Of a stretch of 64,000 nt of DNA, positions 19,769 to 33,208 are shown in pieces. The first letter of the stretch is position 1; each line of letters begins with the position of its first letter. Both the position numbers and the translations under genes were made by a program. Origin of the DNA: Methanobacteriota archaeon (GTDB taxonomy: Archaea > Thermoplasmatota > Thermoplasmata > SG8-5 > DAIRED01); contig JAZDNO010000002.1 of the NCBI GenBank assembly GCA_043799545.1, positions 1 to 64,000 of the forward strand, given 5' to 3'. The notes under the pieces were generated by a model. It had not been told where the DNA came from. It searched no databases and was given only the letters and a program-made list of their open reading frames with translations.

Positions 19769-19842
19769 TGGGCCCAGTCGGATTTGAACCGACGACCATC
19801 TGGTTATGAGCCAGACGCTCCACCGGGCTAAGCTACGGGCCC
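19769..19842 (-). tRNA. tRNA-Ile2 (CAT anticodon, TiaS substrate)
   Basis: GGGCCCG acceptor, TCTGG-CTCATAA-CCAGA anticodon arm, GTCGG-TTCAAAT-CCGAC T arm; acceptor resembles archaeal Ile rather than Met tRNAs; CCA not encoded. Confidence 0.9.
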
Positions 19843-20438: not shown

Positions 20439-21482
20439 ATGCGATTCACGGATAATGAGAAGGCAACCCTTTACGGGCTCGTGAAATACCCCGATTTGAA
20501 CGACCGTGAGTTGGCAGACAGGATAGATGCAAAGCTGTCGACCGTCACTGCCATCAGGCGCAGGCTTCTGGAGAACGGCGTCCTGAAGGACGTCACGCTC
20601 CCCATGATGGATGCTCTTGGTTCAGAGATTCTGGTAATTGGCTACGGCCCGCTCAACCCCTCCAACAAAAACGCGCACAGCGAGATGGCGAGAAAAATCT
20701 CCGGGACGTGCGGTTGCGCGTTCCTTCTGGCGGACGCGATGGATTACGGTTTTTTCGTCGGCTGCGCCAACAACTACACGGACATAAAAAGCGATCTGGA
20801 CGGGCTGAACCACTACCTCACCCATGCCGGATTGGGAAGCGAACCCTGGAACTACGCCCTCTTTCCGTTCGCAGTATCCAAGATTCTGAACTGTTTCGAT
20901 TTCTCGCCAACGCTCAGCAGCGCCATCGGCATCGAGCAGGAATCGGCTGCCCTGGACTTGGGGTTTAAAAAACTCAAACGCGCGGACCTCTCCCTAAAGG
21001 AGAAGGCAGTCCTGAAAGGGATTGTAAGCAACCCTGGCGTTCCCGATTCGCACCTTGCGGACATAGTCGACGTTTCGAGGCAGGCAATCGCAGAGATGAA
21101 GCGCCGATTCATCGACGAGGGCATCGTCAGGAACATCCGCGTTCCCGACCTCCGGCAAGTCGGCTGCGAGCTCGTCACGCTAACGCACAGCCAATTCAAC
21201 CCGCGCAGCCAGCTTGTTGAAAGGAAGGAAGGGATACGCCTCATGATGGATGAGTCGCCGCATCTGTTCGCCGTTTCGGGCAGCTTCGAAAACGTCATGC
21301 TGCATTCGCACGTCAGCTATTCACACCTCGACGCCGTGAAAAAGCGCCTGCTCGGATATTACAAGACGCACGATTTCATCCGCGGCGAACCGAGGATATC
21401 GATATTCCTGACCGCGAACATGAGCTTTCCAATATGGTTCAAATTCGACAATATTCTTGAAAAGACCCTGGGGACTAGCTGA
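20439..21482 (+). CDS. Transcription regulator with two tandem Lrp/AsnC-like HTH units
   Basis: EKATLYGLVKYPDLNDRELA...TVTAIRRRL and EKAVLKGIVSNPGVPDSHLA...AIAEMKRRF are mutually similar. Confidence 0.8.
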   Translation: MRFTDNEKATLYGLVKYPDLNDRELADRIDAKLSTVTAIRRRLLENGVLKDVTLPMMDALGSEILVIGYGPLNPSNKNAHSEMARKISGTCGCAFLLADAMDYGFFVGCANNYTDIKSDLDGLNHYLTHAGLGSEPWNYALFPFAVSKILNCFDFSPTLSSAIGIEQESAALDLGFKKLKRADLSLKEKAVLKGIVSNPGVPDSHLADIVDVSRQAIAEMKRRFIDEGIVRNIRVPDLRQVGCELVTLTHSQFNPRSQLVERKEGIRLMMDESPHLFAVSGSFENVMLHSHVSYSHLDAVKKRLLGYYKTHDFIRGEPRISIFLTANMSFPIWFKFDNILEKTLGTS

Positions 21483-24400
21483 GGACTAGGTCCACTTCCT
21501 TCTCCAGGTTGTTCAATTCGTTGCTGGACATCGTATCGGGGTTCACGGGCATCACGAGGATGGAACGGTTGATCGCCACCTGGTCCCTCAAGGACTGGAT
21601 GAGCCTCAGGACAGTTATGAAGCTGTTGTTGGTTATCAGGTACTCCAGCCCGTCCAGGAGTATTATTCCGCCCTGCTTCGCGAGGAACTGCTCTAGCGAA
21701 AGGCTGAGCTTCTCGAGGTCCTTGGGCCTGACGGAGTCCTTGGTCCCGACGTTGGAAAGCCACAGAATGGGCGTTTCTCCTAGGCCGTACATCTCGCGGA
21801 TTTTATCGGGGAAGTTCCTGGTCACGCAGAAGCCCTTCCTGCCCGATTCAATGTACTTCTTGAGCAACTTATAGGCGCGGAGCGACCGGTCCTCGCGAAC
21901 GAGGTACGTGAAGCCGTCCTTGAGGTCCATTTCTTCGGGCTCCGGCTTATCTTCTTCCGCCGCCTTCTGAACCCGTGCACCCGCCTGCGCTTCCGCGACA
22001 ATCACCTCGGGAGCGAGCTCCTCCGGCTGCGGCGCCCGGGATTGCTGGGGCTCCTTCGCCTCCACAATCAGGTCGGTCTTGGGAGAAAGCGAATCAAGAG
22101 CCTCTCGCGCCCTCTGATGGTTCGGCTCGCTGTCCAGCGCAGCCCTCAGCAGCTGCCTCGCCTCGTCGGCGTTTCCCTGCTCGAGCACCGTCATCGCTTT
22201 GGAGTACAGCAAATTCGGGTCCTCGGGCCTGGCAGAGAGCTTTTTGTCCAGGGCTTCCACGGTCTTCATCTGTTTCTCAATCAGCTTTGTCTCCTGCTCG
22301 TCGTCCCCCTCGAACTGGGTGCCGCACCTGGGGCATTTCTTAGCGCTCAGGCTCACGATTGCGTTGCACAGGGAGCACATCTGGGTCTCGGGCTTCGCCT
22401 TGGTAGAGAACGCCTCGATGACCTTCCTGGCCGTTACCTTGCCGACCTTGTCGACGCGCCTGAGGTCATCCTCCGAAGCGGCGCCGAGCTTCTCTGTCGT
22501 GTCATAGCCAGCCCGATACAGTGACCGGGCAACCTGCTTGCTGACGCTTGCGCCCTCCGTCACCGCCTGCACGAAAGAGTCCATGTCTTGGGACATGGCC
22601 TCCTCTTCCTCAGCCGGCTCGGGAGATGGCAATTGCACCGCGACTGTCACGATTTTCTGGGGAGCTGGCCTTGGCTCCTGCGCCGCAGCCTCTGGAACTG
22701 ATGCCAACTGCGGTTCCGGGACTTGCGGCGGCGCGCTGCCGATGTCTTTTGTGAGTTCCACCAACGCATCATCGCGCTGTTCCACCGGGCTTGGCTTCCT
22801 CATGTCTTCGATGACTTCGAGAAGCTTTCTCCCGCGCTCGGCGATCTTCGCGGGCGATGGAGCCCCATCCTCCTCTGAAAGGGTCTCCTCCAAGGCGCTT
22901 GTCAGCTCGCCCTCTACGTCGCCGTCTCCTTCCAGCCCCTCACCAGGGATGAGGCTGGCGCCGCACCGCTGACACTCGACGGCTCCCTGTCCCAATGTTT
23001 TCTCGCAGACGGGGCAGGTAATCTCCGTCGGCTCCTTCAGCCCGTCGGGCATCTCGAGCCAGTCGTGGATGCTTCGTATGACTGCGTGGCTCATACCAGG
23101 TATCTTGAGGGCGTCCTCCTTGGGAGCCTGCGTCACAGACTCCAGCGTCCAGAATCCCGACGTGAATATCGCCACAGCGAGTGACTTCTCGATTCCCGGC
23201 ACCTTCATGAACTCCTGGACGGCGACCTTCATCCGAATCGGTGTGATGCCTAACACGACATTGTGCCCGCCCATGGGCCACTCGACCACGTACTCCTCCT
23301 CCACGTCGACGCCGAAGGCCAGTTCCGAGCATCTGGTCTCGGCCAGTATCGTGTCCTCCCATCGCTCGAGCGAGGGCTGGACTTCGTCGTCTGCCGACAC
23401 TGTGGCCTTGATGAAATCCTCCACGTCCATTTCGATGTCCTTGCGCATCTCCTGCATGCGCCGGATTACGTCCCGAGCGAGACCCTCCGAGCGTATCTCG
23501 TCGTCGACCTCGACGTTCACGAACACGCTCCCCCCGGCTATTTCGCCCCTGACGATATTGCTCGGCAATTTTGTTGTGAAAGTGACCATCTCCGGGAGGA
23601 TTTCTATCAACTGCCCTTCGATACCGAGCTTGTAGACACCCTTCTCGATGTCCTCCTTAATCTTTTTAGCCGGGCGGATCTCCAGCATCCTAGCAATCTT
23701 CTTTTCCCAGAGCTTGTAGGCCTTGCCTATCACGTTGGGGTTCGGGTGGACCTGGATTTCTAGACCGGCCCACTCGTGTCCGGACGGGACGACCTCAATC
23801 TCCTTGGTGTTGGCCTGCTTTTTAATTACCTGCTCGAACATACCCACGGCATCGGCAATCTTTTGATCTTTAACCTCGACGGTTATCCTCTTGACAGGCC
23901 ACCTCAGCTTGTGGCCGACCAACTGTCGCGCCTGGTTTGCAGCAGAGGCGATTTCCCTGGCGACCAGCATCTGCTCCTCCAATTTCAAGTCGTGCCTTTC
24001 CTTGAAGCTAGCGGGCCAATCGCACATATGAACCGAAACCAGTTTGCCGTCGACATTTTGATATATATCTTCCGCCAAATACGGCGTGAACGGAGCCAAA
24101 AGCTTCGAGAGAGTGCCGAGGACTTCCGACATAGTCCAGTAGAGTGCCTTTTTATCCTCCGGCTGCCCAACGGACCAGGCCCTTTCCCTCACGAGCTTGA
24201 GATACCATCGCGAGAGGTCGGCGAGGACGTAATCCTCTATCGCGCCCAGCGCCTTGTGCATCGATTGCGCCTGCATCTCCGAGGCAACCGCGTCCTTCAA
24301 GGTTTCCAGCCTCGATAGCACCCAGCGGTCCTCCGGCGTCAGGCTCTTCTGGACTATCTCATGATTCGTCTCCATGTCGTACGCGTCCATGTTCATGTAC

Positions 24401-26394
24401 GAAGCCGCGAACCTGTACACGTTCCAAAGCGTGTTCAGGAATTTAACCGATGCGTGCACATCTTCCGGGTTGTACCGGATGTCCTCCCACGGCGCGACCT
24501 TCCCGATGAGGTACACGCGCAGGGCATCCCTCCCGTGGCCATCTATCGCCTCCATCGGCGAGACCGCGTTTCCCGATGTTTTGGACATCGGTTTTCCCGA
24601 CTGGTCGCAAATCCAGCCGTGAACGAGGGCCGACTTGTACGGCATCCGGTCGAAGACGAGCGACGATGCGACAATCTGGACGTATAGCCATCCTTTGGCC
24701 TGGTCGTGTGCCTCGGTGACCCAGTCGCACGGCCACCAGCGCTTGAACTCGTCGCGCTTCGAGGGATATCCCAGCTGGGCCCAGGTCGCCACGCTCGCGT
24801 CGAACCACACATCCAGCACGTCGGGCACGCGCTTCATCGCGCCGCCGCATTTGGGGCAGTCGAGCCTCACGCTGTCCAGAGCCGGCCTGTGCAGGTCCAT
24901 GCCGTCGCGGAATCCCGCTACGCCCTTGAGCTCTTTGACGCTGCCGACGATTTCCACGTGCCCGCACATGTCCGTGATGCACTCCCAGACGGGCATCGGA
25001 ATCCCCCAGTATCTCTGCCGGGATACGCACCAGTCCCTTGCCTTGTCCGCGAAGCAGTAAACGTTGGATGAGCCCGCATACTGCGGCGCCCAGTTGATCG
25101 CCTTGATACCGCGCATCATCTTTTCCCGGGCGTCCGAGGCCTTCACGAACCATTGCTTGCTCGCCCTGTGCATCAATGGGGTTCGGCATCTCCAGCACAT
25201 TCCCTGCCTGTGCGTCCCCTGACCCGCGTGAAGGAGGAACCTCATAGACGCCAGGTCGGATACCACCTGCTTCGAGGCCTCCGCCAATGTCTTTCCAGCG
25301 TACTTCAGGCCGCTCTCGGTCGTGAACACCGCCCTTTCGTCAACCGGAGAGAATGCAGGCAGACCGTGCGCCTTGGCGATGTCGAAATCGTCCGAGCTAA
25401 AACCGGGTGCCACGTGCACAACTCCCGTGTGGTTCTTCGTGACCTTTGCCGATGGAACCACTTTGTGGACCCATTCGCCCTTGACCCCCTTCAGGTACGG
25501 CACGTCCGCCATCAGCGGATGGAAATACTGGAGCCCGACGAGCCTGTCACCCTTCAATGTCTCAGTTATCTCGTAGGCCTCTATCCCTGTGGCATTGGCC
25601 ATCGCCTCCACGTTGTCCTCCAGAAGGTACATCGTCTCGACCTTGCCCCCTTTCCGAATCTTGACCTTCGCATAATTCAATTCCGGGTTGACGGCGACGG
25701 CCAGATTACCGATGATGGTCCACGGGGTCGTCACCCATATCAAAAGGTATTCGTCCCGCTTCCCACGCAGCGGGAGCTTGAAGAATATCGAATCGCCGGT
25801 CGCTCCAGCGTATGAAATTTCCTGCTCGGACAGGGCCGTCTCGCACCTGGGGCACCATGGGACAGCCCTCTCCTCGCGGACCAGGTGCTCGCTTGAATGC
25901 AATTTCTTTAACGTCCACCAGGCGCTCTCGATGTAGTCGTTCGATGAGCTGAGGTACGGCGCGTTCCAGTCCATCCATATGCCCAGGTCTGCGAACTCGG
26001 CGGTCATCTGCTTCTGGTTTGCATCCGCCATCTCCCGGCAGCGCATCACGAATTTATCCACGCCACCATCGTCAATCTGCCTCTTGCGCTCGAAGCCCAG
26101 CGCCTTTTCGATTTGAATCTCGATGGGGAGACCGTGCATGTCGAAGCCTGGCTGGTCGCGCACGTTGAACCCCTGCATCCGCCTGAATCTCAGCATGGCG
26201 TCCTTGAGAACCTTGTTCCTGGCGGTTCCCATGTGCACCGGCCCGCTGGCGTATGGAGGGCCGTCCACGAAGAAGAACTCTTTACCCTTTGAGCGCAGAT
26301 TCCTAGCGCGCTCGTAAGCCCTGGTTTTGCTCCAGAACTCGGCGTACTTCGGCTCTATGGATTTCGGGTCGTATCTCTTGTCAGGAACCTTCAA
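21475..26394 (-). CDS. ileS: Isoleucyl-tRNA synthetase-like protein fused to HhH, Zn-ribbon, TPR and DUF835-like domains (1639 aa)
   Basis: DGPPYASG.VHMGT, GFDMHGLPIE, CWRC, SRQRYWG, PDVLDVWFD; C-terminal LWLS...IILLDGLEYLITNNSF DUF835 pattern; TTG start. Confidence 0.9.
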   Translation of the reverse strand: MKVPDKRYDPKSIEPKYAEFWSKTRAYERARNLRSKGKEFFFVDGPPYASGPVHMGTARNKVLKDAMLRFRRMQGFNVRDQPGFDMHGLPIEIQIEKALGFERKRQIDDGGVDKFVMRCREMADANQKQMTAEFADLGIWMDWNAPYLSSSNDYIESAWWTLKKLHSSEHLVREERAVPWCPRCETALSEQEISYAGATGDSIFFKLPLRGKRDEYLLIWVTTPWTIIGNLAVAVNPELNYAKVKIRKGGKVETMYLLEDNVEAMANATGIEAYEITETLKGDRLVGLQYFHPLMADVPYLKGVKGEWVHKVVPSAKVTKNHTGVVHVAPGFSSDDFDIAKAHGLPAFSPVDERAVFTTESGLKYAGKTLAEASKQVVSDLASMRFLLHAGQGTHRQGMCWRCRTPLMHRASKQWFVKASDAREKMMRGIKAINWAPQYAGSSNVYCFADKARDWCVSRQRYWGIPMPVWECITDMCGHVEIVGSVKELKGVAGFRDGMDLHRPALDSVRLDCPKCGGAMKRVPDVLDVWFDASVATWAQLGYPSKRDEFKRWWPCDWVTEAHDQAKGWLYVQIVASSLVFDRMPYKSALVHGWICDQSGKPMSKTSGNAVSPMEAIDGHGRDALRVYLIGKVAPWEDIRYNPEDVHASVKFLNTLWNVYRFAASYMNMDAYDMETNHEIVQKSLTPEDRWVLSRLETLKDAVASEMQAQSMHKALGAIEDYVLADLSRWYLKLVRERAWSVGQPEDKKALYWTMSEVLGTLSKLLAPFTPYLAEDIYQNVDGKLVSVHMCDWPASFKERHDLKLEEQMLVAREIASAANQARQLVGHKLRWPVKRITVEVKDQKIADAVGMFEQVIKKQANTKEIEVVPSGHEWAGLEIQVHPNPNVIGKAYKLWEKKIARMLEIRPAKKIKEDIEKGVYKLGIEGQLIEILPEMVTFTTKLPSNIVRGEIAGGSVFVNVEVDDEIRSEGLARDVIRRMQEMRKDIEMDVEDFIKATVSADDEVQPSLERWEDTILAETRCSELAFGVDVEEEYVVEWPMGGHNVVLGITPIRMKVAVQEFMKVPGIEKSLAVAIFTSGFWTLESVTQAPKEDALKIPGMSHAVIRSIHDWLEMPDGLKEPTEITCPVCEKTLGQGAVECQRCGASLIPGEGLEGDGDVEGELTSALEETLSEEDGAPSPAKIAERGRKLLEVIEDMRKPSPVEQRDDALVELTKDIGSAPPQVPEPQLASVPEAAAQEPRPAPQKIVTVAVQLPSPEPAEEEEAMSQDMDSFVQAVTEGASVSKQVARSLYRAGYDTTEKLGAASEDDLRRVDKVGKVTARKVIEAFSTKAKPETQMCSLCNAIVSLSAKKCPRCGTQFEGDDEQETKLIEKQMKTVEALDKKLSARPEDPNLLYSKAMTVLEQGNADEARQLLRAALDSEPNHQRAREALDSLSPKTDLIVEAKEPQQSRAPQPEELAPEVIVAEAQAGARVQKAAEEDKPEPEEMDLKDGFTYLVREDRSLRAYKLLKKYIESGRKGFCVTRNFPDKIREMYGLGETPILWLSNVGTKDSVRPKDLEKLSLSLEQFLAKQGGIILLDGLEYLITNNSFITVLRLIQSLRDQVAINRSILVMPVNPDTMSSNELNNLEKEVDLVLS

Positions 26395-26860: not shown

Positions 26861-26938
26861 TGGGGCCGGGACCGAGATTTGAACCCGGGTCAGGGGATCC
26901 ACAGTCCCCAAGGATAACCAAGCTACCCCACCCCGGCC
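26861..26938 (-). tRNA. tRNA-His (GTG), G-1 and CCA encoded
   Basis: GCCGGGG/TCCCGGC acceptor, GGGGA-CTGTGGA-TCCCC anticodon arm, CCGGG-TTCAAAT-CTCGG T arm, C73 then CCA. Confidence 0.96.
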
Positions 26939-27075: not shown

Positions 27076-28854
27076 CTACGACCCGCCGCCGAAGAACCCT
27101 CTGAGCAGCGGATGCATCTCCATCATCTGCTCCCTGCCGATGGCCTCGTAGGTCTGTATCATGATGCCGACGGCCAGCAGAACGCCCGTTCCACTGGTAT
27201 TGCCAACAGTGCCCAGCAAATCGGCGAAGAATGCCAGACCTCCCACGATGGCTCCAGAGAGCACCGTCACCACCGGGATATACCTTTTCAACACCATCTC
27301 TGAAAGGACTCGGGGGTCCCGCCTGAACCCGGGTATCTGCATCCCGCTCTCCATTATCTGGTCGGCCACAGCCTCAGGACCCATGTTCGTCGTCTCAATC
27401 CAGAACTTGGCGAATAGGACGGAACCGATTATCATCACCCCGCCATAGACCGCAAGATGTATGCCCACCTGGACCACGCTCTTCCCTTCAGGCAGATAGC
27501 CGCTGTTGAAGAATGGCAGTAGCCAATCGCCAATGCCATTGATGGACGAGAGGTACCATGCCAGACCTCCGGCTGGCGTCGTCTGGCCTTCGATATAATA
27601 GCCTATGTTCGTCGCTTGCGACCACATCCCTTCCCTGCCGAGGATTGGCCAGTTGGCAAAGAACGGATTTGACCAGAATAGCAAAGAGAACATGCTGACG
27701 TTTGCCAGCACAGCGGCGATAAGGATGACGGGGATGTTCGAAGCGTAAATCAAACGTATCGGGTAACGACCGCGAGCCCCCCTGGCGCTCTCATGAGCAA
27801 GTGGAAGCTCTATGCGGCACGACTCGACGTAGGCGACGAAGAAGAATATGCTCAGCGTTCCCACGAGCGCGATGATTGGATTTGGCGGTTGTATCAGTAT
27901 CCTTTCATAACCACCACCGGCCATAGAACCTGACGACATCTCGCCGAAGAAATAAAACGTCTTCGGAAACGTCCCTACTGGCGGGTTGTTGATGCTGATG
28001 GGGGATGCCGTGTCTGCCGGCATCCAGTTCAAGGTCCCTGTGAATATCGATTCGGCGACTCCCGCAGCGATGAACAATGATATGCCGCTTCCAATCCCCC
28101 ACTTGGATACGGTCTCATCCATCAAGAAGACGAGATACGAGCCGAAGCACAACTGCGCGACGATGATGAATTTCGCAAGATTCTCACCATTGCCAGCCAT
28201 CATCCCGTCCATGTTGGAAATGAACTTTGTCGATGGCTGCAGGTACCCGTAGACCTGCGGTACCGCCTCGACTACAATCATTATCACGACCAGGAGCTTC
28301 TGCACGCTCTGGTAGACCGCCTTGTCGTCTTCGTCGGTGAGCTTGAGGTTGATAATCTTCGCGCCGACGAACAACTGCATGATGATCGAGCCTGTGACTA
28401 TCGGTCCGATTCCGAGGTGCATCAGCGAGCCCTGCGCCCCCGCCATAATGGCCCTGTAGCTCTCGAACAGGTCGACCGTCTCGGCCTGGTCAAGACCGTA
28501 TATCATCACGTTTGTCAGGATGAAATACAGGATGAGAATTACTATGAGCCAAACAAGCTTCGTGCGGAAGTGGACGTGTCCGTCCGGCTTCTTCACGGAT
28601 GGGAGTCTCGTAGCGAGCCCCTTGAGGCCGTAGAGCATGCTTTTCTTGCTGCCATCGGGCTTCGCGCCCTCGAAGGATAACATCAAGGCCAGAACCACGA
28701 AGAGGAAGAAGAAAGCCGTCCCCAACATGCCTAGGACGACCATGCTCGGCTTGGCCCACCAGTTGTAGGCCACCATCGTAACGGCGTAGATAGCCATGAT
28801 GGCTATTACCCAGCCCGGATTGTACCTCTCTCCTTCGTCTGGCATCGCAATCAC
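27076..28854 (-). CDS. secY: Preprotein translocase SecY with N-terminal 2-TM extension
   Basis: LPSVKKPDGHVHFRTKL, LGIGPIVTGSII, KWGIGSGISLFI, YASNIPVIL, IPGFRRDPR. Confidence 0.97.
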   Translation of the reverse strand: MIAMPDEGERYNPGWVIAIMAIYAVTMVAYNWWAKPSMVVLGMLGTAFFFLFVVLALMLSFEGAKPDGSKKSMLYGLKGLATRLPSVKKPDGHVHFRTKLVWLIVILILYFILTNVMIYGLDQAETVDLFESYRAIMAGAQGSLMHLGIGPIVTGSIIMQLFVGAKIINLKLTDEDDKAVYQSVQKLLVVIMIVVEAVPQVYGYLQPSTKFISNMDGMMAGNGENLAKFIIVAQLCFGSYLVFLMDETVSKWGIGSGISLFIAAGVAESIFTGTLNWMPADTASPISINNPPVGTFPKTFYFFGEMSSGSMAGGGYERILIQPPNPIIALVGTLSIFFFVAYVESCRIELPLAHESARGARGRYPIRLIYASNIPVILIAAVLANVSMFSLLFWSNPFFANWPILGREGMWSQATNIGYYIEGQTTPAGGLAWYLSSINGIGDWLLPFFNSGYLPEGKSVVQVGIHLAVYGGVMIIGSVLFAKFWIETTNMGPEAVADQIMESGMQIPGFRRDPRVLSEMVLKRYIPVVTVLSGAIVGGLAFFADLLGTVGNTSGTGVLLAVGIMIQTYEAIGREQMMEMHPLLRGFFGGGS

Positions 28855-29315
28855 TCACTTTTCTTCTTCTGCGGCTGCGGCGCAGCCGGCTTCGGCAGGA
28901 CGACCTCTCCGCCGGCGGCCTTGACCTTCGCCACGGCCTTTTCCGACGCCTCCGCCACGGTTATCTTCATCTTGTGCGTCACCGGACCGGTTCCCAAGAG
29001 CTTGTCTATGTGCATCGCCCCCAGGTCGATTGTGAACAGACCCTTGTCGTTCGCGGCCAATCCGCCCGCGACCCATTTAGCAAGGTTCATCTCAATGTCC
29101 GAGACGTTTATCGTGAATTTGCTCAAGACCGTGCACTGCGGCCTCTTGAAGCCGTGGCGCCCGAAGTGGTCCGGGTCGAACTTCAGCATGTGGATGTACT
29201 TGTGCTTGTGTAGGCCTGCGTTCCCGTGACCGCCGTGCTTTCCCGCGCCGCGACCGCCTTTCTTTCCCCTGCCGTGGGTCCTGCGGCCCCTGAATCTCTG
29301 GGTCTTGCTGACCAT
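28851..29315 (-). CDS. rpl15: 50S ribosomal protein uL15
   Basis: RGRRTHGRG, HFGRHGFKRP, KLLGTG. Confidence 0.96.
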   Translation of the reverse strand: MVSKTQRFRGRRTHGRGKKGGRGAGKHGGHGNAGLHKHKYIHMLKFDPDHFGRHGFKRPQCTVLSKFTINVSDIEMNLAKWVAGGLAANDKGLFTIDLGAMHIDKLLGTGPVTHKMKITVAEASEKAVAKVKAAGGEVVLPKPAAPQPQKKKSE

Positions 29316-29791
29316 TAATCCACCACCATGAGCATCCTGAGAAGCAGGGCGTTGATGTCTTTTCCCCTGTAACCCAACGCGCCACCGTTCCTGTACGACC
29401 TCTTGATTCCCTCGTACCCCTTCACTGGCGGGTGAAGCCGGATGAGCGGCTTCGCGTCCTTCAAGTCCTTCAGCCTGGCCTTGCCAGCGGAAATCTGCTG
29501 AGCGAATTCGTTTATGTCCTTGAATTTGGAGTTCGCCTTGACGTACTCGTCCGTTATCGGCTTTCTCCCCGCGAGCTGCCCCCTCGCCTTGATGACCTTT
29601 GCCAGCGTCGCCGCGTCGACCTCGCCCCAGGTGATGTAGTCCTTGGCCTTGTTCAGCATCCCCTTGTTCTGCGGGCTGTCCCACAGCAGGGCGCAGTGGT
29701 TCGCTCTGTTCAGGTGCATCAGCTCCATCGTTTCGCGGATGTCGTCCTTGACGTGCACCGAGCTCCGAATTCGTACGACCGCGAACGTCAC
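29315..29791 (-). CDS. rpl30: 50S ribosomal protein uL30
   Basis: AVVRIRS, YITWGE, RLHPPVKG, GGALGYRG. Confidence 0.96.
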   Translation of the reverse strand: MTFAVVRIRSSVHVKDDIRETMELMHLNRANHCALLWDSPQNKGMLNKAKDYITWGEVDAATLAKVIKARGQLAGRKPITDEYVKANSKFKDINEFAQQISAGKARLKDLKDAKPLIRLHPPVKGYEGIKRSYRNGGALGYRGKDINALLLRMLMVVD

Positions 29792-30666
29792 AGCTCGTCA
29801 CCCCCTTCGTCAACTCCATCTATCGGCAGCTCGACGTCCGAGGACTCGACCTTGGCGGATATCATCTTCTCGACCAGCTTCTCCTTCTCCTTGAGCCGCT
29901 CGCGCTTCTTAGCATCGTCCAGAAGCTTCGCCGCCGTCTGCGGGTCAATACCTATAGGCTTCACTTCCATCGCTCCGCTGATGATCTTCAGCCGCATGGC
30001 CTGCTCCTTCGAGATGCGCATGGACGCCGTCTTGCGCAGCGCATCGAAGGTCGCCAGCCCGTAATTGACCGTCGTCTTGGTGTGCCCGTCCGATATGCTC
30101 CAGGCGTCCTTGATGCCCGCGAGCCTCAGGACGTGCCTCGGAATCTCCGACACCGCCAGCCCGACGCCGCGCGGCGCAGGCTTGAATACGATGTCCACAG
30201 AGCCGCTCTTGCCTATGACCTCGAAAGGCAGAGTGTGGGGCTTACCGCAGCCGCACTCCCACGAGCCGCACCCGCGCTTGATTTCGACTATGCTCAGCTT
30301 GGCGCTGTCGATGGCCTTCCTGATTGCGGGGCCTACTTCCTTTCCGCGAGCCCTTCCGAGCCCGACGAAGCCGTCCGAGTTGCCCACGACCACCGTGATC
30401 GCGAAGCGCACCCTGCGCCCGGAATCCGTCATGCGCTGGACCATGTTCACGTCTATGACTTCGTCCGTCATCTCGGGCAGCAGTATGTCGACTATCTCCG
30501 GCTCCCTTATCCGGAGCCTCGTGGCCAGAGCCTCGCTCATGGTGGAGACCTTTCCTTCAGCCACCAAATCGCCCAGGCTTGTCTTGGGGACCCAGTCGCC
30601 GATGCGCCTGGACCCGCGCTCCTTGTCGCCCCTGTTGTCCCGTCCCCTTCCTCCTCTTGCCGGCAT
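29788..30666 (-). CDS. rps5: 30S ribosomal protein uS5
   Basis: WVPKTSLG, VQRMTDSGRR, RGCGSWEC. Confidence 0.97.
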   Translation of the reverse strand: MPARGGRGRDNRGDKERGSRRIGDWVPKTSLGDLVAEGKVSTMSEALATRLRIREPEIVDILLPEMTDEVIDVNMVQRMTDSGRRVRFAITVVVGNSDGFVGLGRARGKEVGPAIRKAIDSAKLSIVEIKRGCGSWECGCGKPHTLPFEVIGKSGSVDIVFKPAPRGVGLAVSEIPRHVLRLAGIKDAWSISDGHTKTTVNYGLATFDALRKTASMRISKEQAMRLKIISGAMEVKPIGIDPQTAAKLLDDAKKRERLKEKEKLVEKMISAKVESSDVELPIDGVDEGGDEL

Positions 30667-31170: not shown

Positions 31171-31626
31171 TCAATCACCTTCCTTTATGAATCCCTGGGT
31201 TCTCATCTGGGTCATCATGTGCGGCACGTTTTTATACATGCCTCCTTTCGCCCAGAGGTACAGCTTGCGGTACATGTGCGCGTCTATCTTCTTCGCCTCG
31301 CGAAGCTCTCGAAGCTTCGCCCGCATGGGCCGTATCTTCTGTATCCAGCCGCGCTTGGTCGGCGTGCGGGCGTTCTTCCCGCCCTTCCGGCTGCCAGGGC
31401 CGCGCCTGCGGCCGCCCTTCTTCTGGGCGCTCCTTTCCCTCGTCCGTCCGCGCGAAATCCCCTTTTTCTGCTTTATCTGGATGGCGCCATAGCCAATCGC
31501 GGCCCTGACGCTGCTGCGGGTGATGGAGTCCGCTATGTCCTCGACGCGCTCGGGGTTCATCTTTATCCTGTTCTCCCCGATTCCCAGAATCTGGGCAGCC
31601 ATGCGCCTCTGCGATTTCAAGTTCAT
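31171..31626 (-). CDS. rpl19e: 50S ribosomal protein eL19
   Basis: QRRMAAQIL, GPGSRKG, YRKLYLWAKGG. Confidence 0.97.
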   Translation of the reverse strand: MNLKSQRRMAAQILGIGENRIKMNPERVEDIADSITRSSVRAAIGYGAIQIKQKKGISRGRTRERSAQKKGGRRRGPGSRKGGKNARTPTKRGWIQKIRPMRAKLRELREAKKIDAHMYRKLYLWAKGGMYKNVPHMMTQMRTQGFIKEGD

Positions 31627-32651
31627 TCTACCGCCCCCGTCTCCGGAAGCTTGACGCCCTCTTCCTTCGCCCTCTTCCGGGCCAAGGTCTGCTTCTCCGC
31701 GCTGATGTTGAGGAGCCTTATTCCTTTATTGTCCGCCATGAGCACTATCCGCATCAGCTTCGCGAAACCCACGCCGTGGGCCACGCGCGCCGCCTCGGCC
31801 TTAGGGTTTATGAATTCCATCTCTTTGATGTTGTGTACCATTATCTCCTTGAACCCAGACGGGTGGAGGTTCCTGGTCTCCTTCGGCGAGCGGTAGCCTA
31901 TCGAAACGACCGGCGGGCGCTTGATGTAGTGCCTGCGCATCTTTGAGTGTATGCCCTTCGGCTTGCGCCACTTGTCGCCAAGCTTCTGGTACCTGAACCA
32001 CTCCTGGCGGTGGAATGCCGGGCGCTTGGCGTTCATGTCGTTCTTCAGCGAGAGGGCTAGCCTCTTTTCCGCGCTGAGCTCCGGCTTCGCCTTCGCCTTG
32101 TAGACGTCTTCTTCGTCCTTCTCGTCCACTATCTCGACATCGGGGTCGCCAGCCTTGGCCGGGGCCTCGTACTTGACCTTTTTGGCCTTCGGCGCGGCCT
32201 TCTTCTCCGGAGCGGCCTCAACGATTTCAGTTTCCGCTTCGGACTTGACAACGGGTTTCGTCGGCCTAGGAGCCGGTTTGGGCGCCTCCTCTTTCGGTGC
32301 GGATGCGGCCCTGGCTGGCTCGGGAGCCATCCCCTGCGGCACTTCCGGCCTTAGCTCTTTCAGCTCCTGGTAAGCCGTCTTCTTCTTCAGCTCCGCCGCT
32401 GGGGCGGGCTTCGGGGTCTGCGCCTTGGGCGCGGCCGGCTTGGCAACGGCGGTTTTCGCAGCTGTCCCTGCGGCAGCCGCCGGTTTCGCCGCGGGCTTTG
32501 CCGCTGGCTTGGCTGCAGCGGCCTTGGGCGCGGCTGGTTTGGCAGCGGTTGCTGCCTTTGGCGCAACCGCAGGCTTCGCCTTGGCGTCATCCTGGGCCTT
32601 CGGTTTGGCGGTCTTCTTCGCTTCCTTCGGTTCGACGTTTTCTGCGACCAT
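31623..32651 (-). CDS. rpl32e: 50S ribosomal protein eL32 with ~185-aa Ala/Lys/Pro-rich N-terminal extension
   Basis: RPAFHRQEW, WRKPKGIHSKMR, LHPSG core; start MVAENVEP after an SD-like GGGGTGA. Confidence 0.93.
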   Translation of the reverse strand: MVAENVEPKEAKKTAKPKAQDDAKAKPAVAPKAATAAKPAAPKAAAAKPAAKPAAKPAAAAGTAAKTAVAKPAAPKAQTPKPAPAAELKKKTAYQELKELRPEVPQGMAPEPARAASAPKEEAPKPAPRPTKPVVKSEAETEIVEAAPEKKAAPKAKKVKYEAPAKAGDPDVEIVDEKDEEDVYKAKAKPELSAEKRLALSLKNDMNAKRPAFHRQEWFRYQKLGDKWRKPKGIHSKMRRHYIKRPPVVSIGYRSPKETRNLHPSGFKEIMVHNIKEMEFINPKAEAARVAHGVGFAKLMRIVLMADNKGIRLLNISAEKQTLARKRAKEEGVKLPETGAVE

Positions 32652-32665
32652 CTTTTTCACCCCGT

Positions 32666-33208
32666 TCAACGGCTCCCCTTCTTCGTGATGAAGACGCCGT
32701 CCTGGAATATCCTCAAATCCCTGTCCTTTATCCGCGTGGCCTTCTCGATGTTGGCTGCAGTCTGGCTCACGTTCTCGACATCGGGCCCTGTGAGAAAGAC
32801 CTCGTCCCCCTTGACCACGATTTTGGTGTCGCTGAGTATTTTTGCCTTCCTCGGCGCCTTCTCGCCAAGGAAGTTCTCCACGTGGAAGAAGTTGCCCTTC
32901 ACAGCCGTCTTTATCGGAAAGTGCGAGTACACGATTTTCATCTTGTATTCGTACGGCTGGGCTGCCCCGTGGAGCATGTTTAGTATGTGAGACATTATCG
33001 TTCCAGCGACCGCGGCTTCGCGCCTTTTCGGCTCCTCGCACGAGATGTGTATCTCCTTTCCGGAGAGTTCAACCTTCACGCGGGGGTGCGCCAGCTTGCG
33101 GGTCAGCGTGCCGGCCTTGCCCTTCACCGTGAGGACGCCTTCCTTGTAGGTGACTGTCACCCCGGCGGGGATGGCTATCTTCTCGTCGATCATTCCTACT
33201 CTCGTCAT
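32666..33208 (-). CDS. rpl6: 50S ribosomal protein uL6
   Basis: YSHFPI, NFLGEK, VSQTAANIE, RIFQDG. Confidence 0.97.
   Translation of the reverse strand: MTRVGMIDEKIAIPAGVTVTYKEGVLTVKGKAGTLTRKLAHPRVKVELSGKEIHISCEEPKRREAAVAGTIMSHILNMLHGAAQPYEYKMKIVYSHFPIKTAVKGNFFHVENFLGEKAPRKAKILSDTKIVVKGDEVFLTGPDVENVSQTAANIEKATRIKDRDLRIFQDGVFITKKGSR

Follow-up and report, generated by a model that had tools for sequence, protein, structure and literature searches.

The window, by which we mean the whole stretch of 64,000 nucleotides that was analysed, carries on its minus strand a gene in which an isoleucyl-tRNA synthetase (IleRS) is continued by a long C-terminal tail. The gene, its domains (with residue numbers of the fused protein) and its neighbours are:

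21475..26394, minus strand: fused IleRS gene of 1,639 codons and a stop, beginning with TTG; IleRS of type A with an HhH/zinc-ribbon/TPR/DUF835 tail
24478..26343, minus strand: class I Rossmann-fold catalytic domain, including the CP1 editing insertion (residues 18-639; Pfam tRNA-synt_1, E 7.5e-106)
23890..24330, minus strand: anticodon-binding helical domain (residues 689-835; Pfam Anticodon_1, E 1.3e-26)
23251..23835, minus strand: C-terminal domain of archaeal/eukaryote-type IleRS, DUF5915 (residues 854-1048; Pfam PF19302, E 3.1e-23)
22951..23220, minus strand: HhH and zinc-ribbon unit 1 (residues ~1059-1148; CPVC at 1127, CQRC at 1141)
22615..22950, minus strand: linker 1, acidic and with much Pro and Ala (residues 1149-1260; net charge -14, with 15% E and 14% P)
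22312..22614, minus strand: HhH and zinc-ribbon unit 2 (residues 1261-1361; CSLC at 1340, CPRC at 1354)
22087..22305, minus strand: TPR-like four-helix segment (residues 1364-1436; Pfam TPR_19 at 1380-1433, E 2e-5)
21913..22086, minus strand: linker 2, acidic and by prediction disordered (residues 1437-1494; model residues 190-228 have a pLDDT below 50)
21478..21912, minus strand: DUF835 domain (residues 1495-1639; Pfam PF05763 at 1506-1633, E 2.6e-31)
20439..21482, plus strand: tandem Lrp/AsnC-like gene of 347 aa, a convergent neighbour sharing 8 nt with the fused gene at the latter's 3' end
26861..26937, minus strand: tRNA-His (ARAGORN), between the fused gene and SecY, where the ribosomal-protein superoperon ends
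19769..19842, minus strand: tRNA with anticodon CAU (ARAGORN), 1.6 kb from the fused gene

The reading frame is uninterrupted from 26394 to the stop codon at 21475-21477 and encodes 1,639 aa. As the original prediction had it, neither a stop nor a frameshift separates synthetase and tail, and the Pfam scan bore out the order HhH, zinc ribbon, linker, HhH, zinc ribbon, TPR and DUF835 within positions 21475-23240, which correspond to residues ~1052-1639 and hold everything beyond the IleRS C-terminal domain. The IleRS is joined to its tail in one real gene. An assembly or read-through artefact can be set aside, because the architecture is shared by at least 308 protein clusters and by 20 of the 28 sampled families of the Thermoplasmata, where similar fusions had indeed been expected, and because all of its parts are under purifying selection. 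Compared to the close relative L124 (86% identical), dN/dS was 0.065 for the fused protein overall, 0.043 in the catalytic part, 0.035 in the TPR-like segment, 0.15 and 0.17 in linkers 1 and 2 (the latter 53% identical), which are the fastest-evolving parts, and 0.016 in DUF835, the best-conserved part with 97% amino acid identity; all these ratios are rough, as dS was saturated in most of the pairs compared.

The whole protein reached 806.7-809 bits with the NCBIfam ileS model TIGR00392 (NCBIfam search and genome scan), above the cut-off of 621.4. Residues 18-639 contain HMGT at the HIGH position (H54/G56), PMSKT at the KMSKS position (K605) and DQAKGWL, together with the editing motifs WVTTPWT and HTGVVHVAPG. 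Further along, 14 of 14 universally invariant columns are kept in residues 641-850, and the RRxQxxRK invariants are retained in the DUF5915 region.

Regarding the tail, HhH unit 1 is weak when taken alone: with NCBIfam, residues 1059-1115 matched no more than the C-terminal part of a model for an ATP-dependent DNA helicase (E 1e-5), and Pfam gave a weak match to Zn_Ribbon_1 at 1127-1148. Unit 2 is clearer, matching Pfam HHH_5 (E 7e-12, best stretch 1285-1329) and HHH_2 (E 2e-6), with weak zinc-ribbon matches at residues 1335-1361 that include DZR at 1335-1358. The HHH_5 matches of Pfam fall in two stretches of the tail, and the two HhH-zinc units are homologous and collinear (BLASTP E 2e-8). 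The AF2 model predicts for unit 2 a small beta ribbon that follows five helices (pLDDT above 86), and for the TPR-like segment helices at model residues 110-182 (pLDDT 88-98). By composition, Pro and Ala are abundant in both linkers, which are acidic; linker 2 has a net charge of -8.

The C-terminus matches DUF835, as predicted, with 108.6 bits against a gathering threshold of 33.1 for PF05763, and the match covers profile positions 7-135 of 136. DUF835 has been described as an inactivated KaiC/RecA-like domain, recorded as iKaiC among the output domains that response regulators of archaea carry, e.g. REC-DUF835 (Galperin et al. 2018, PMC5847659). Our results agree with this description, which the original prediction had also put forward. 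The model of the domain (AF2 pLDDT 88) gave as best Foldseek matches FlaH/ArlH (4yds, E 1.2e-5), PH0284, KaiC and RecA, each with probability 1.00. The Walker A motif [GA]xxxxGK[ST] is absent from the fused tail and from all 41 orthologous tails scanned, and the model places a three-residue turn at the P-loop position (CVT-RNF-PDK). Judged from this model, the DUF835 tail has the KaiC/RecA fold without a P-loop and is predicted to be ATPase-dead. No published account of an IleRS-DUF835 fusion was found in the literature searched; the primary description of iKaiC, reportedly by Makarova, Galperin & Koonin 2017 (mBio), lay outside this search and may mention the fusion.

A phylogeny of fused and unfused copies, as had been proposed, placed all 32 of 32 fused sequences together with two nested tail-less ones in one clade (SH-aLRT 94), with the tail-less type A sequences of other classes outside it. 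The fusion was absent from about 90 genomes of other classes in the phylum. These sequence data indicate that the fusion is old and was gained once, at the base of a Thermoplasmata clade. The long branches of families f10 and f16 join each other; their exact placement in the tree is unsafe, and no claim is based on that placement. In ten families (f5, f6, f9, f13, f15, f17, f22, f23, f24 and f27) the fused protein is the only IleRS, with 905-987 bits, and must therefore charge tRNA there. A free-standing or split tail was also considered. Tail-only proteins were many in the search; the three examined, on contigs of 16 kb to 1.8 Mb, all lay at a fused-gene locus, namely an open 1,439-aa frame (L128), a broken gene call with a 398-aa IleRS piece (L129) and a frameshift (L130). 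No true split form of IleRS and tail was found among these three.

The genome of the window was checked for a second canonical ileS, which is present on contig 30 (C30:12925-15414). This copy has no tail; its score is 900 bits and its identity to the fused core 34%. It belongs to the other deep type of IleRS and is IleRS2-like, with 945 bits to 8c8u vs 603 for the fused copy, whose own best PDB match was 8c9d (605 bits). Both deep types of IleRS were found as sole IleRS in other classes across the phylum, and the type B IleRS of the class forms a single clade in the tree, leaving a recent bacterial import of type B unsupported. Within the order, both types have been co-inherited since its ancestor, with congruent trees.

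One IleRS partner decays in most two-copy lineages. HIGH or KMSKS is lost from the fused copies of five families (f2, f3, f4, f16 and f26), and most of these copies are without the editing His327 as well; the f10 ortholog has likewise lost the ATP-binding signature motifs. The dead copies of the five families retain DUF835 at E 1e-30 to 1e-37, and the f10 copy has HhH units and no DUF835 in frame. Because dS was saturated in most pairs, dN/dS was set aside for the dead copies and selection was read from amino acid identity, which in f2, at saturated dS, was higher in DUF835 (89-94%) than in the body (80-88%). In the case of f2 and f10, universal invariants are kept at 93-100% in the anticodon-binding and C-terminal domains vs 44-92% in the catalytic and editing parts, and from these retained anticodon-side invariants we infer that dead copies may still bind tRNA. 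Since dead fused copies are conserved in sister families, scaffold and tail together would have a role apart from aminoacylation, and the fused protein very probably has a second, non-catalytic job, such as tRNA-sensing or docking. The predicted new role for a synthetase scaffold therefore stands for these dead, conserved copies of sister families and not for the window copy, nor can the fused family as a whole be called repurposed, being the sole IleRS in ten families.

The genome (2.06 Mb) contains 14 DUF835 and 35 KaiC-domain matches. Its other DUF835 proteins carry PAS and HTH, V4R, TPR or AAA+ domains, and four of them adjoin KaiC-like genes. Three or more DUF835 domains occur in each of the sampled genomes that carry a fused IleRS, compared to 0-1 in f8, a lineage with tail-less type A; DUF835 proteins occur in the absence of a fused IleRS in families f12, f14, f21 and f3, so that the co-occurrence is one-way, and relatives are not independent samples. 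On the contig of the window, PF06745 (KaiC) had no match. A KaiC gene beside the fused gene was looked for in four relatives: one lies 5 kb off in L125 and none in L126 and L127, and none is conserved in L124-L127. Support for a tie to KaiC-like ATPases thus lies in the co-occurrence of the two domains at genome level.

The gene abutting the 3' end encodes two tandem units, each of a wHTH followed by a beta-alpha-beta-beta-alpha-beta arrangement (Pfam HTH_24/TrmB/MarR). Its model (AF2 pLDDT 89.7, pTM 0.88) matched NirDL (4ch7, E 1.3e-8) and then AsnC/Lrp regulators in Foldseek. Orthologs abut the fused gene in 7 of 7 genomes of its own order with a continuing contig, and the pairing was seen in L124, L125 and L130; the tandem Lrp/AsnC-like gene is a conserved partner of the fused gene across the order. 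Upstream, SecY, L15, S5, L18, L19e and L32e lie on the same strand. In relatives, the fused gene was seen near S24e/S27/Rpb7. The nearby CAU tRNA is probably tRNA-Ile2, to judge from its comparison with the tRNA-Ile(GAU) of the genome: the acceptor stems are identical and the D arms differ by one base and one inserted base. A linkage between tRNA-Ile2 and the fused gene was rejected, as the adjacency is confined to the genus (the CAU tRNA is present in L124 and absent in L125-L127).

Taking these observations together, the reading that we favour, and to which we would give an even chance, is that the synthetase is bifunctional and is linked, through its tRNA-binding body and its iKaiC tail, to a KaiC/DUF835 network. 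A type-A IleRS would have gained, at the base of a Thermoplasmata clade, a C-terminal module of HhH/zinc ribbons and an ATPase-dead DUF835. Its first function would be ordinary tRNA-Ile charging, which is indispensable in genomes with no other IleRS; its second would be non-catalytic and would need the tRNA-recognising body and the tail together. The body would bind tRNA-Ile, and the flexible tail would present DUF835 to partners in the genome's large KaiC-like/DUF835 network, thereby coupling the binding or charging state of tRNA-Ile to signalling or regulation, much as the HisRS-like tRNA sensor of GCN2 does. The tail-less IleRS2-like enzyme would take part of the housekeeping load in the window genome. 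Here, we infer the sensing of Ile or tRNA and the feeding of a KaiC network that the original prediction proposed, contact with KaiC-like proteins, and the direction in which information would flow. A more specific version, which we hold to be somewhat unlikely, is a Thermoplasmata starvation sensor: the IleRS body would read uncharged tRNA-Ile, the iKaiC tail would signal to KaiC-like hubs and, in this order, to the adjacent Lrp/AsnC-like regulator, and the window protein would be an intermediate that is both enzyme and sensor.

Alternatively, the tail could be a catalytic helper only, i.e. a tRNA-binding appendage without signalling, comparable to the eukaryotic Arc1p/EMAPII/Trbp111-type or WHEP additions; its HhH and zinc-ribbon units, perhaps together with the RecA-like domain, would increase the affinity for tRNA. 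HhH domains are backbone-binding nucleic-acid modules, present in 1 to 3 units per fused protein depending on the lineage, and the HhH and zinc-ribbon units could be a mere aid to tRNA binding during catalysis; the role as sole, working IleRS in ten families and the setting among translation-related genes (where the r-protein superoperon ends here, and near S24e/S27/Rpb7 elsewhere) fit such a helper as well. However, it would leave unexplained why DUF835 is the best-conserved part and why the tail is kept, at E 1e-30 or better, on copies without HIGH, KMSKS or editing residues, and DUF835 otherwise occurs on sensor and regulator proteins (PMC5847659, and the other DUF835 proteins of this genome). 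We therefore consider this explanation unlikely.

Information could also flow in reverse, with the IleRS as the target that the KaiC-like/DUF835 network switches, sequesters or localises, throttling translation. DUF835 stands at the output end of response regulators (PMC5847659), where it can be read as a docking module, and a sole IleRS, as in many genomes, would make a good control point. A dead enzyme would be a pointless target, yet dead tailed copies are under selection in at least five families beside a working tail-less IleRS, which makes the reverse flow rather improbable.

The window copy itself is altered at 7 of 105 universal invariants (T149S, T221V, G333S, R444N, T566A, R567K and L989M), compared to at most 5 changes (median 0) among 56 working enzymes in a leave-one-family-out benchmark. 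R567K and changes at T566 are also present in dead copies of the order, and the TIGR00392 score of 809 bits compares with 905-987 for sole-copy fused enzymes. These points would suit a window copy that is already a pseudo-synthetase, with all charging done by the tail-less IleRS of contig 30. We regard this as quite improbable, because no known catalytic residue is missing and H54, G56, D85, H327, D336, Q565, W569 and K605 are all retained (motif table vs 80 relatives), of which H54, G56 and K605 are invariant in the 56 working enzymes; the dN/dS of the catalytic half is low and the score is far above the ileS cut-off. HMGT and PMSKT were considered as signs of decay and rejected: they are normal forms in the fused clade, whose sole-copy enzymes read H[MLIV]GT and [PRAK]MSKS. 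At the CP1 editing site, H327 and D336 are kept and T221V (in WVTTPWT) and G333S alter invariant columns. The ATP-binding signature motifs, whose loss marks a pseudo-synthetase, are kept. With these residues intact and both motifs normal for the clade, the term 'repurposed' fails for the window copy. It can probably still charge tRNA-Ile, and the best explanation of its sequence is an intermediate, partly relaxed state, because the second, tail-less IleRS would share the housekeeping load.

Finally, an inhibitor-resistance or condition-specific pair of IleRS genes with an incidental tail, as in Bacilli IleRS1/IleRS2 or mupA/mupB, is very improbable even though the tail-less copy is IleRS2-like and such paralog pairs are documented for natural IleRS inhibitors (PMC5388404; bioRxiv 10.1101/2022.02.09.479832), since it leaves the tail unexplained, the window copy scores 543 and 534 bits with the MupA (NF000257) and MupB (NF000258) models, below their cut-offs of 1900, both types occur as sole IleRS across the phylum and have been co-inherited in the order, and the decay of one partner in most two-copy lineages is unexpected for a maintained pair. 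Bacterial IleRS1/IleRS2 pairs (Bacillus; mupirocin resistance) likewise combine two deeply diverged types in a genome, one of them IleRS2-like, whereas here the other copy is archaeal with a signalling-like tail and one member decays in most lineages.

The closest known proteins are entries named 'isoleucine--tRNA ligase' of 1,350-2,560 aa from Thermoplasmata/Methanomassiliicoccales, with the same orthologous type A core, HhH, in part zinc ribbons, and DUF835 (core 45-48% and DUF835 60-70% identical to the window copy). Unlike these, the window copy is accompanied by a second IleRS and is changed at the 7 universally invariant positions; its tail, of 590 aa vs ~280-450 aa, contains a duplicated HhH-zinc unit, two acidic linkers of considerable length and a TPR-like segment. 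The DUF835 of the response regulators (PMC5847659) belongs to the same Pfam family, with a KaiC/RecA-like fold without P-loop placed C-terminally after a flexible linker; its input is a receiver or PAS sensor, compared to an essential translation enzyme in the fused IleRS. The tail also resembles RadA/Rad51 in having an (HhH)2-type domain before a RecA-superfamily core, with weak NCBIfam RadA and Hef HhH matches at 1279-1331 and RecA among the fold matches; it differs in the missing Walker A, in the inserted zinc ribbons and TPR, and in its best fold matches, which are the KaiC-like FlaH and PH0284 and not RadA.

In eukaryotes, the HisRS-like domain of GCN2 is a pseudo-synthetase through which the binding of uncharged tRNA leads to the activation of a kinase. 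The fused IleRS is similar in combining a synthetase body with a signalling domain and in the sister lineages whose bodies are dead with tRNA-facing parts kept. It differs in that there is no kinase, the partner domain is an inactive ATPase fold, homology to GCN2 is lacking, tRNA sensing is hypothetical, and the window copy and many relatives are probably active enzymes.

Concerning annotation, the hundreds of 'isoleucine--tRNA ligase' entries include proteins unable to be ligases, and across the phylum the two deep types of IleRS are found together or in place of one another. To our knowledge, neither the stringent response nor GCN2 has a known counterpart in archaea, and we know of almost no identified inputs to the proposed KaiC-like signalling hubs. 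If true, the starvation sensor would be an archaeal analogue of GCN2 or of the stringent response. An essential synthetase tethered to an inactivated KaiC domain would offer a testable entry point to the starvation response and to the inputs of the KaiC hubs. The relatives provide a natural separation-of-function series, from intact sole copies through the window intermediate to dead copies with anticodon side and tail, and would therefore strengthen the case for this entry point.

On the minus strand of the window, positions 21475-26394 form one open frame of 1,639 codons, along whose product Pfam places the following domains.

Pfam domains of the fused protein (window 21475-26394, minus strand)
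residues 18-639: tRNA-synt_1
residues 689-835: Anticodon_1
residues 854-1048: DUF5915
residues 1127-1148 and 1335-1361: zinc ribbons, both weak
residues 1285-1333: best match of HHH_5/HHH_2
residues 1380-1433: TPR_19
residues 1506-1633: DUF835 (E 2.6e-31)

NCBIfam identifies this protein as ileS (806.7 bits against a cut-off of 621.4). The original prediction, an IleRS and a tail in one gene, is thus confirmed in full by the single open frame and by the Pfam and NCBIfam domains. The tail range it gave, 21475-23240, corresponds to residues ~1052-1639, all beyond the IleRS C-terminal domain, and the four CxxC knuckles of the tail lie at the positions it had assigned. Regarding the two HhH-Zn units, the weak first unit aligns to the second by BLASTP at E 2e-8, collinear through the ribbon, and judged from this alignment it represents a duplicate copy of the second that has diverged.

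The genome, an assembly of 31 contigs totalling 2.06 Mb at 94% completeness, was also to be checked for a second ileS, and one is present on contig 30 (1,044 aa, 900 bits), with the canonical motifs HVGH and KMSKT. Its identity to the fused core is no more than 34%, as against 45-48% between the fused core and fused IleRS cores across the class. IleRS trees of 62 and 74 sequences show two fully supported clades: type A, archaeal-type, into which every fused protein falls, and type B, to which the contig-30 copy belongs and which is tail-less throughout. Type B lies much closer than type A to solved IleRS2 and T. thermophilus structures, scoring 945 and 843 bits, respectively; type A scores 603 bits to the IleRS2 chain 8c8u, 605 to 8c9d (its own best) and 526 to 1ile. 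Because each type is also found, tail-less, as the only IleRS of genomes in the phylum's other classes, neither is a recent import. Two genomes of family f20 (G043, G129) carry a third, tail-less and very divergent IleRS-like paralog of 982 aa (L079, L081), in which MGVHH stands in place of HIGH and AMHRS in place of KMSKS and which emerges, long-branched, at the base of type B; the fused copy of these genomes is slightly altered as well (PLSKS, EQTAGWF).

A search with the tail alone returned at least 308 clusters of proteins (1,350-2,560 aa) that combine IleRS, HhH and DUF835. All come from MAGs of Thermoplasmata or Methanomassiliicoccales type, and their annotation says no more than 'isoleucine--tRNA ligase'. 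Across 151 genomes sampled from the class, the fused form occurs in 20 of 28 families; the unpublished genome G089 contributes one row only to the family and DUF835 tallies, and no claim depends on it. In ten families (f5, f6, f9, f13, f15, f17, f22, f23, f24, f27) the fused form is the only IleRS (905-987 bits) and must therefore be the housekeeping enzyme there. The fusion was not found in ~90 genomes of the phylum's other classes, each with a single IleRS whose open frame does not exceed 1,281 aa. With these other classes as outgroups, 32/32 fused sequences group with two nested tail-less ones (f8, f28) in a single clade (SH-aLRT 94), which means one gain followed by losses. In the window's order, fused and type B copies each form one fully supported clade with the same topology (f1+f4, f2+f3), so that both genes have been co-inherited since the ancestor of this order. 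Literature searches found no paper mentioning the fusion; the primary iKaiC paper (Makarova et al. 2017) might mention it.

The key evidence on function is a decay series in the relatives. Judged from motifs and invariants, in genomes with both IleRS types one of the two tends to decay. In the case of f7, this is the tail-less type B copy: KMSKS is changed to KISRA, KITKD, KIKRG or RMGEH, the editing His is Ser in three of four copies, and the fused copy is pristine (0-1 of 185 type A invariants changed). In these f7 genomes (G003, G036, G046, G093; type B loci L071, L073, L075, L077) the pattern is the reverse of that in the window's order. In the case of f2, f3, f4 (window's order), f10, f16 and f26, the decayed partner is the fused copy. 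Here the HIGH position reads TLGM, NIGM, HMGL and similar, the residues at KMSKS are unrelated, and in f2 the editing His327 is Tyr. Of the 105 universal invariants (alignment columns identical across 56 type A and type B IleRSs presumed to work), 8-55 are changed, and TIGR00392 scores drop to 345-815 bits. Except in f10, whose dead copy has three HhH units and no DUF835 in frame, the dead copies retain DUF835 (E 1e-30 to 1e-37), HhH and zinc ribbons. Between species of f2, dead bodies are 80-88% and DUF835 domains 89-94% identical at saturated synonymous sites. Universal invariants are kept at 99% in the anticodon-binding, 96% in the C-terminal and 80-92% in the catalytic and editing parts of f2; the corresponding values in f10 are 93%, 100% and 44-60%. 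By these counts the losses are selective, with the anticodon side and the tail kept. Since the tRNA-facing body and the tail are maintained without catalysis, the fused protein very probably has a second, non-catalytic function. A rival account takes the tail as a purely catalytic tRNA-binding appendage, and it has to be weighed against tails maintained in just these dead copies. Another takes the two IleRSs as an inhibitor-resistance pair, to be set beside the tendency of one of them to decay.

Where the window copy stands in this series was assessed from its sequence. HMGT and KPMSKT, considered as signs of decay, were rejected as such: type A enzymes that are a genome's sole copy have H[MLIV]GT and [PRAK]MSKS at these positions. 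Seven of the 105 universal invariants are changed (T149S, T221V, G333S, R444N, T566A, R567K, L989M), and H54, G56, D85, H327, D336, Q565, W569 and K605 are retained. In a leave-one-family-out control, working enzymes showed 0 changes in the median and 5 at most, so that the seven represent a modest but real excess. Against L124, an 86%-identical relative from a JGI metagenome, dN/dS was 0.043 for the catalytic half, 0.076 for the anticodon and C-terminal part, 0.15-0.17 for the linkers and 0.016 for DUF835 (97% identity), ratios that are rough at a dS of ~1.2, yet clearly far below 1. By this measure all domains are under purifying selection. The window copy might already be dead, like its decayed orthologs, but in our reading its constraint is partly relaxed and it can probably still charge tRNA, with a likelihood of about two in three.

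To describe the tail structurally, residues 1255-1639 were modelled with AlphaFold2 on an alignment of 41 orthologous tails (mean pLDDT 88). The model runs from a five-helix (HhH)2-like bundle through a small beta ribbon with the four cysteines, four TPR-like helices and a disordered acidic linker of ~40 residues to a compact alpha/beta domain, for which Foldseek returned FlaH/ArlH (4yds, E 1.2e-5), KaiC-like PH0284, KaiC and RecA. A motif search found no Walker A in the window tail and none in the 41 orthologous tails. In DUF835 the P-loop site is replaced by a short turn, bordered by Arg1526 and Pro1529 (both invariant) and Lys1531 (nearly so), and the Walker-B-like strand ILLDGLEYL is retained. 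As modelled, the last domain is an ATPase-dead KaiC-like fold. This fold and the missing Walker A fit the literature, where DUF835 is classed as an inactivated KaiC-like domain ('iKaiC') that forms the output part of response regulators with REC-DUF835 and REC-PAS-PAS-DUF835 architecture in Methanomicrobia and Thermoplasmata (PMC5847659). The order of HhH followed by a RecA fold is shared with RadA, as a resemblance only. Tail length in the window's order ranges from 630 to 1,880 aa; the longest belongs to a dead fused IleRS of 2,919 aa in f2 (G074, L110:501-9300, minus strand), with three HhH units and several zinc-ribbon and TPR segments before DUF835.

With 14 DUF835 domains above cut-off and 35 KaiC-family (PF06745) matches in 2.06 Mb, the genome is rich in presumed partners of the tail. 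Its other DUF835 proteins contain PAS and HTH, V4R, TPR arrays, a DnaA-type AAA+ module or a KaiC-like region, and four DUF835 genes adjoin KaiC-like genes. Several PF06745 matches are clustered with DUF835 genes (e.g. contig 18: 59577-62782; contig 7: 12527-15371 and 67053-69085), and one KaiC-family frame has an internal TAG. In a 732-aa protein (L122:1-2199; contig 24: 80932-83130), a bacterial-DnaA-type AAA+ module (PF00308, E 1.3e-59) is combined with DUF835 at the C-terminus, which is unexpected in an archaeon. No KaiC gene is linked to the fused gene at its own locus, and none is a conserved neighbour in the relatives L124-L127. Class-wide, all sampled genomes that carry a fused IleRS have three or more DUF835 domains; lineages with a tail-less type A enzyme have 0-1 (f8) or two weak ones (f28). 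In f12, f14, f21 and f3, DUF835 occurs without a fused IleRS, so that the association is one-sided, and related genomes are non-independent samples.

Upstream of the fused gene, and on its strand, lie tRNA-His and the end of the ribosomal-protein superoperon (L32e ... L15, SecY). The features around it are:

19769-19842, minus strand: CAU tRNA
20439-21482, plus strand: convergent 347-aa gene, overlapping the 3' end of the fused gene by 8 nt
28851-29819, minus strand: L15 frame, 322 aa, Pfam domain only at 246-307
31623-33041, minus strand: L32e frame, 472 aa, Pfam domain only at 341-445

The over-long L15 and L32e frames suggest long N-terminal extensions or mis-set starts. The CAU tRNA is the only one in the assembly, ARAGORN having detected no further CAU tRNA (initiator or elongator Met). 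Its acceptor stem is that of tRNA-Ile(GAU) and its D arm differs by one base and one inserted base, a likeness that makes it probably tRNA-Ile2, not tRNA-Met. An ortholog of the 347-aa gene abuts the fused gene in 7/7 genomes of the order whose contig continues (G000, G049, G102, G157, G006, G058, G154). In three f3 genomes for which the ileS search returned no fused copy (G018, G029 and G088, the last only 83% complete), it is represented only by paralogs of 29-30% identity. The protein was modelled as two tandem Lrp/AsnC-like units (pLDDT 89.7, pTM 0.88), best matching a tandem NirDL protein (E 1.3e-8) and then AsnC/Lrp feast/famine regulators, including amino-acid complexes. It belongs to a Thermoplasmatota-specific family of ~350 aa with this tandem, NirDL-like architecture and at least three paralogs per genome. 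This neighbour is a lead on interaction with the fused IleRS, no more.

Mechanistically, the IleRS body may bind tRNA-Ile in all states, and the flexibly tethered DUF835 could dock on KaiC-like or DUF835 proteins. The fused protein and its partner would thus report, or respond to, tRNA-Ile status. Of these two directions the sensor is preferred, which would work like the HisRS-like domain of GCN2: an enzyme that is dead is of no use as a target, as the IleRS would have to be if it were the regulated partner. We consider this reading about evenly poised between right and wrong, and all that we say on function is inferred from sequence, predicted fold and comparative genomics.

Altogether, the window contributes an intermediate state, with motifs intact, invariants relaxed and a second ileS present. 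Its analysis adds that HMGT and PMSKT are clade-normal, that decay is reciprocal, striking either paralog in different families, that the tree with outgroups has a single gain, and that the Lrp-like neighbour is order-wide.
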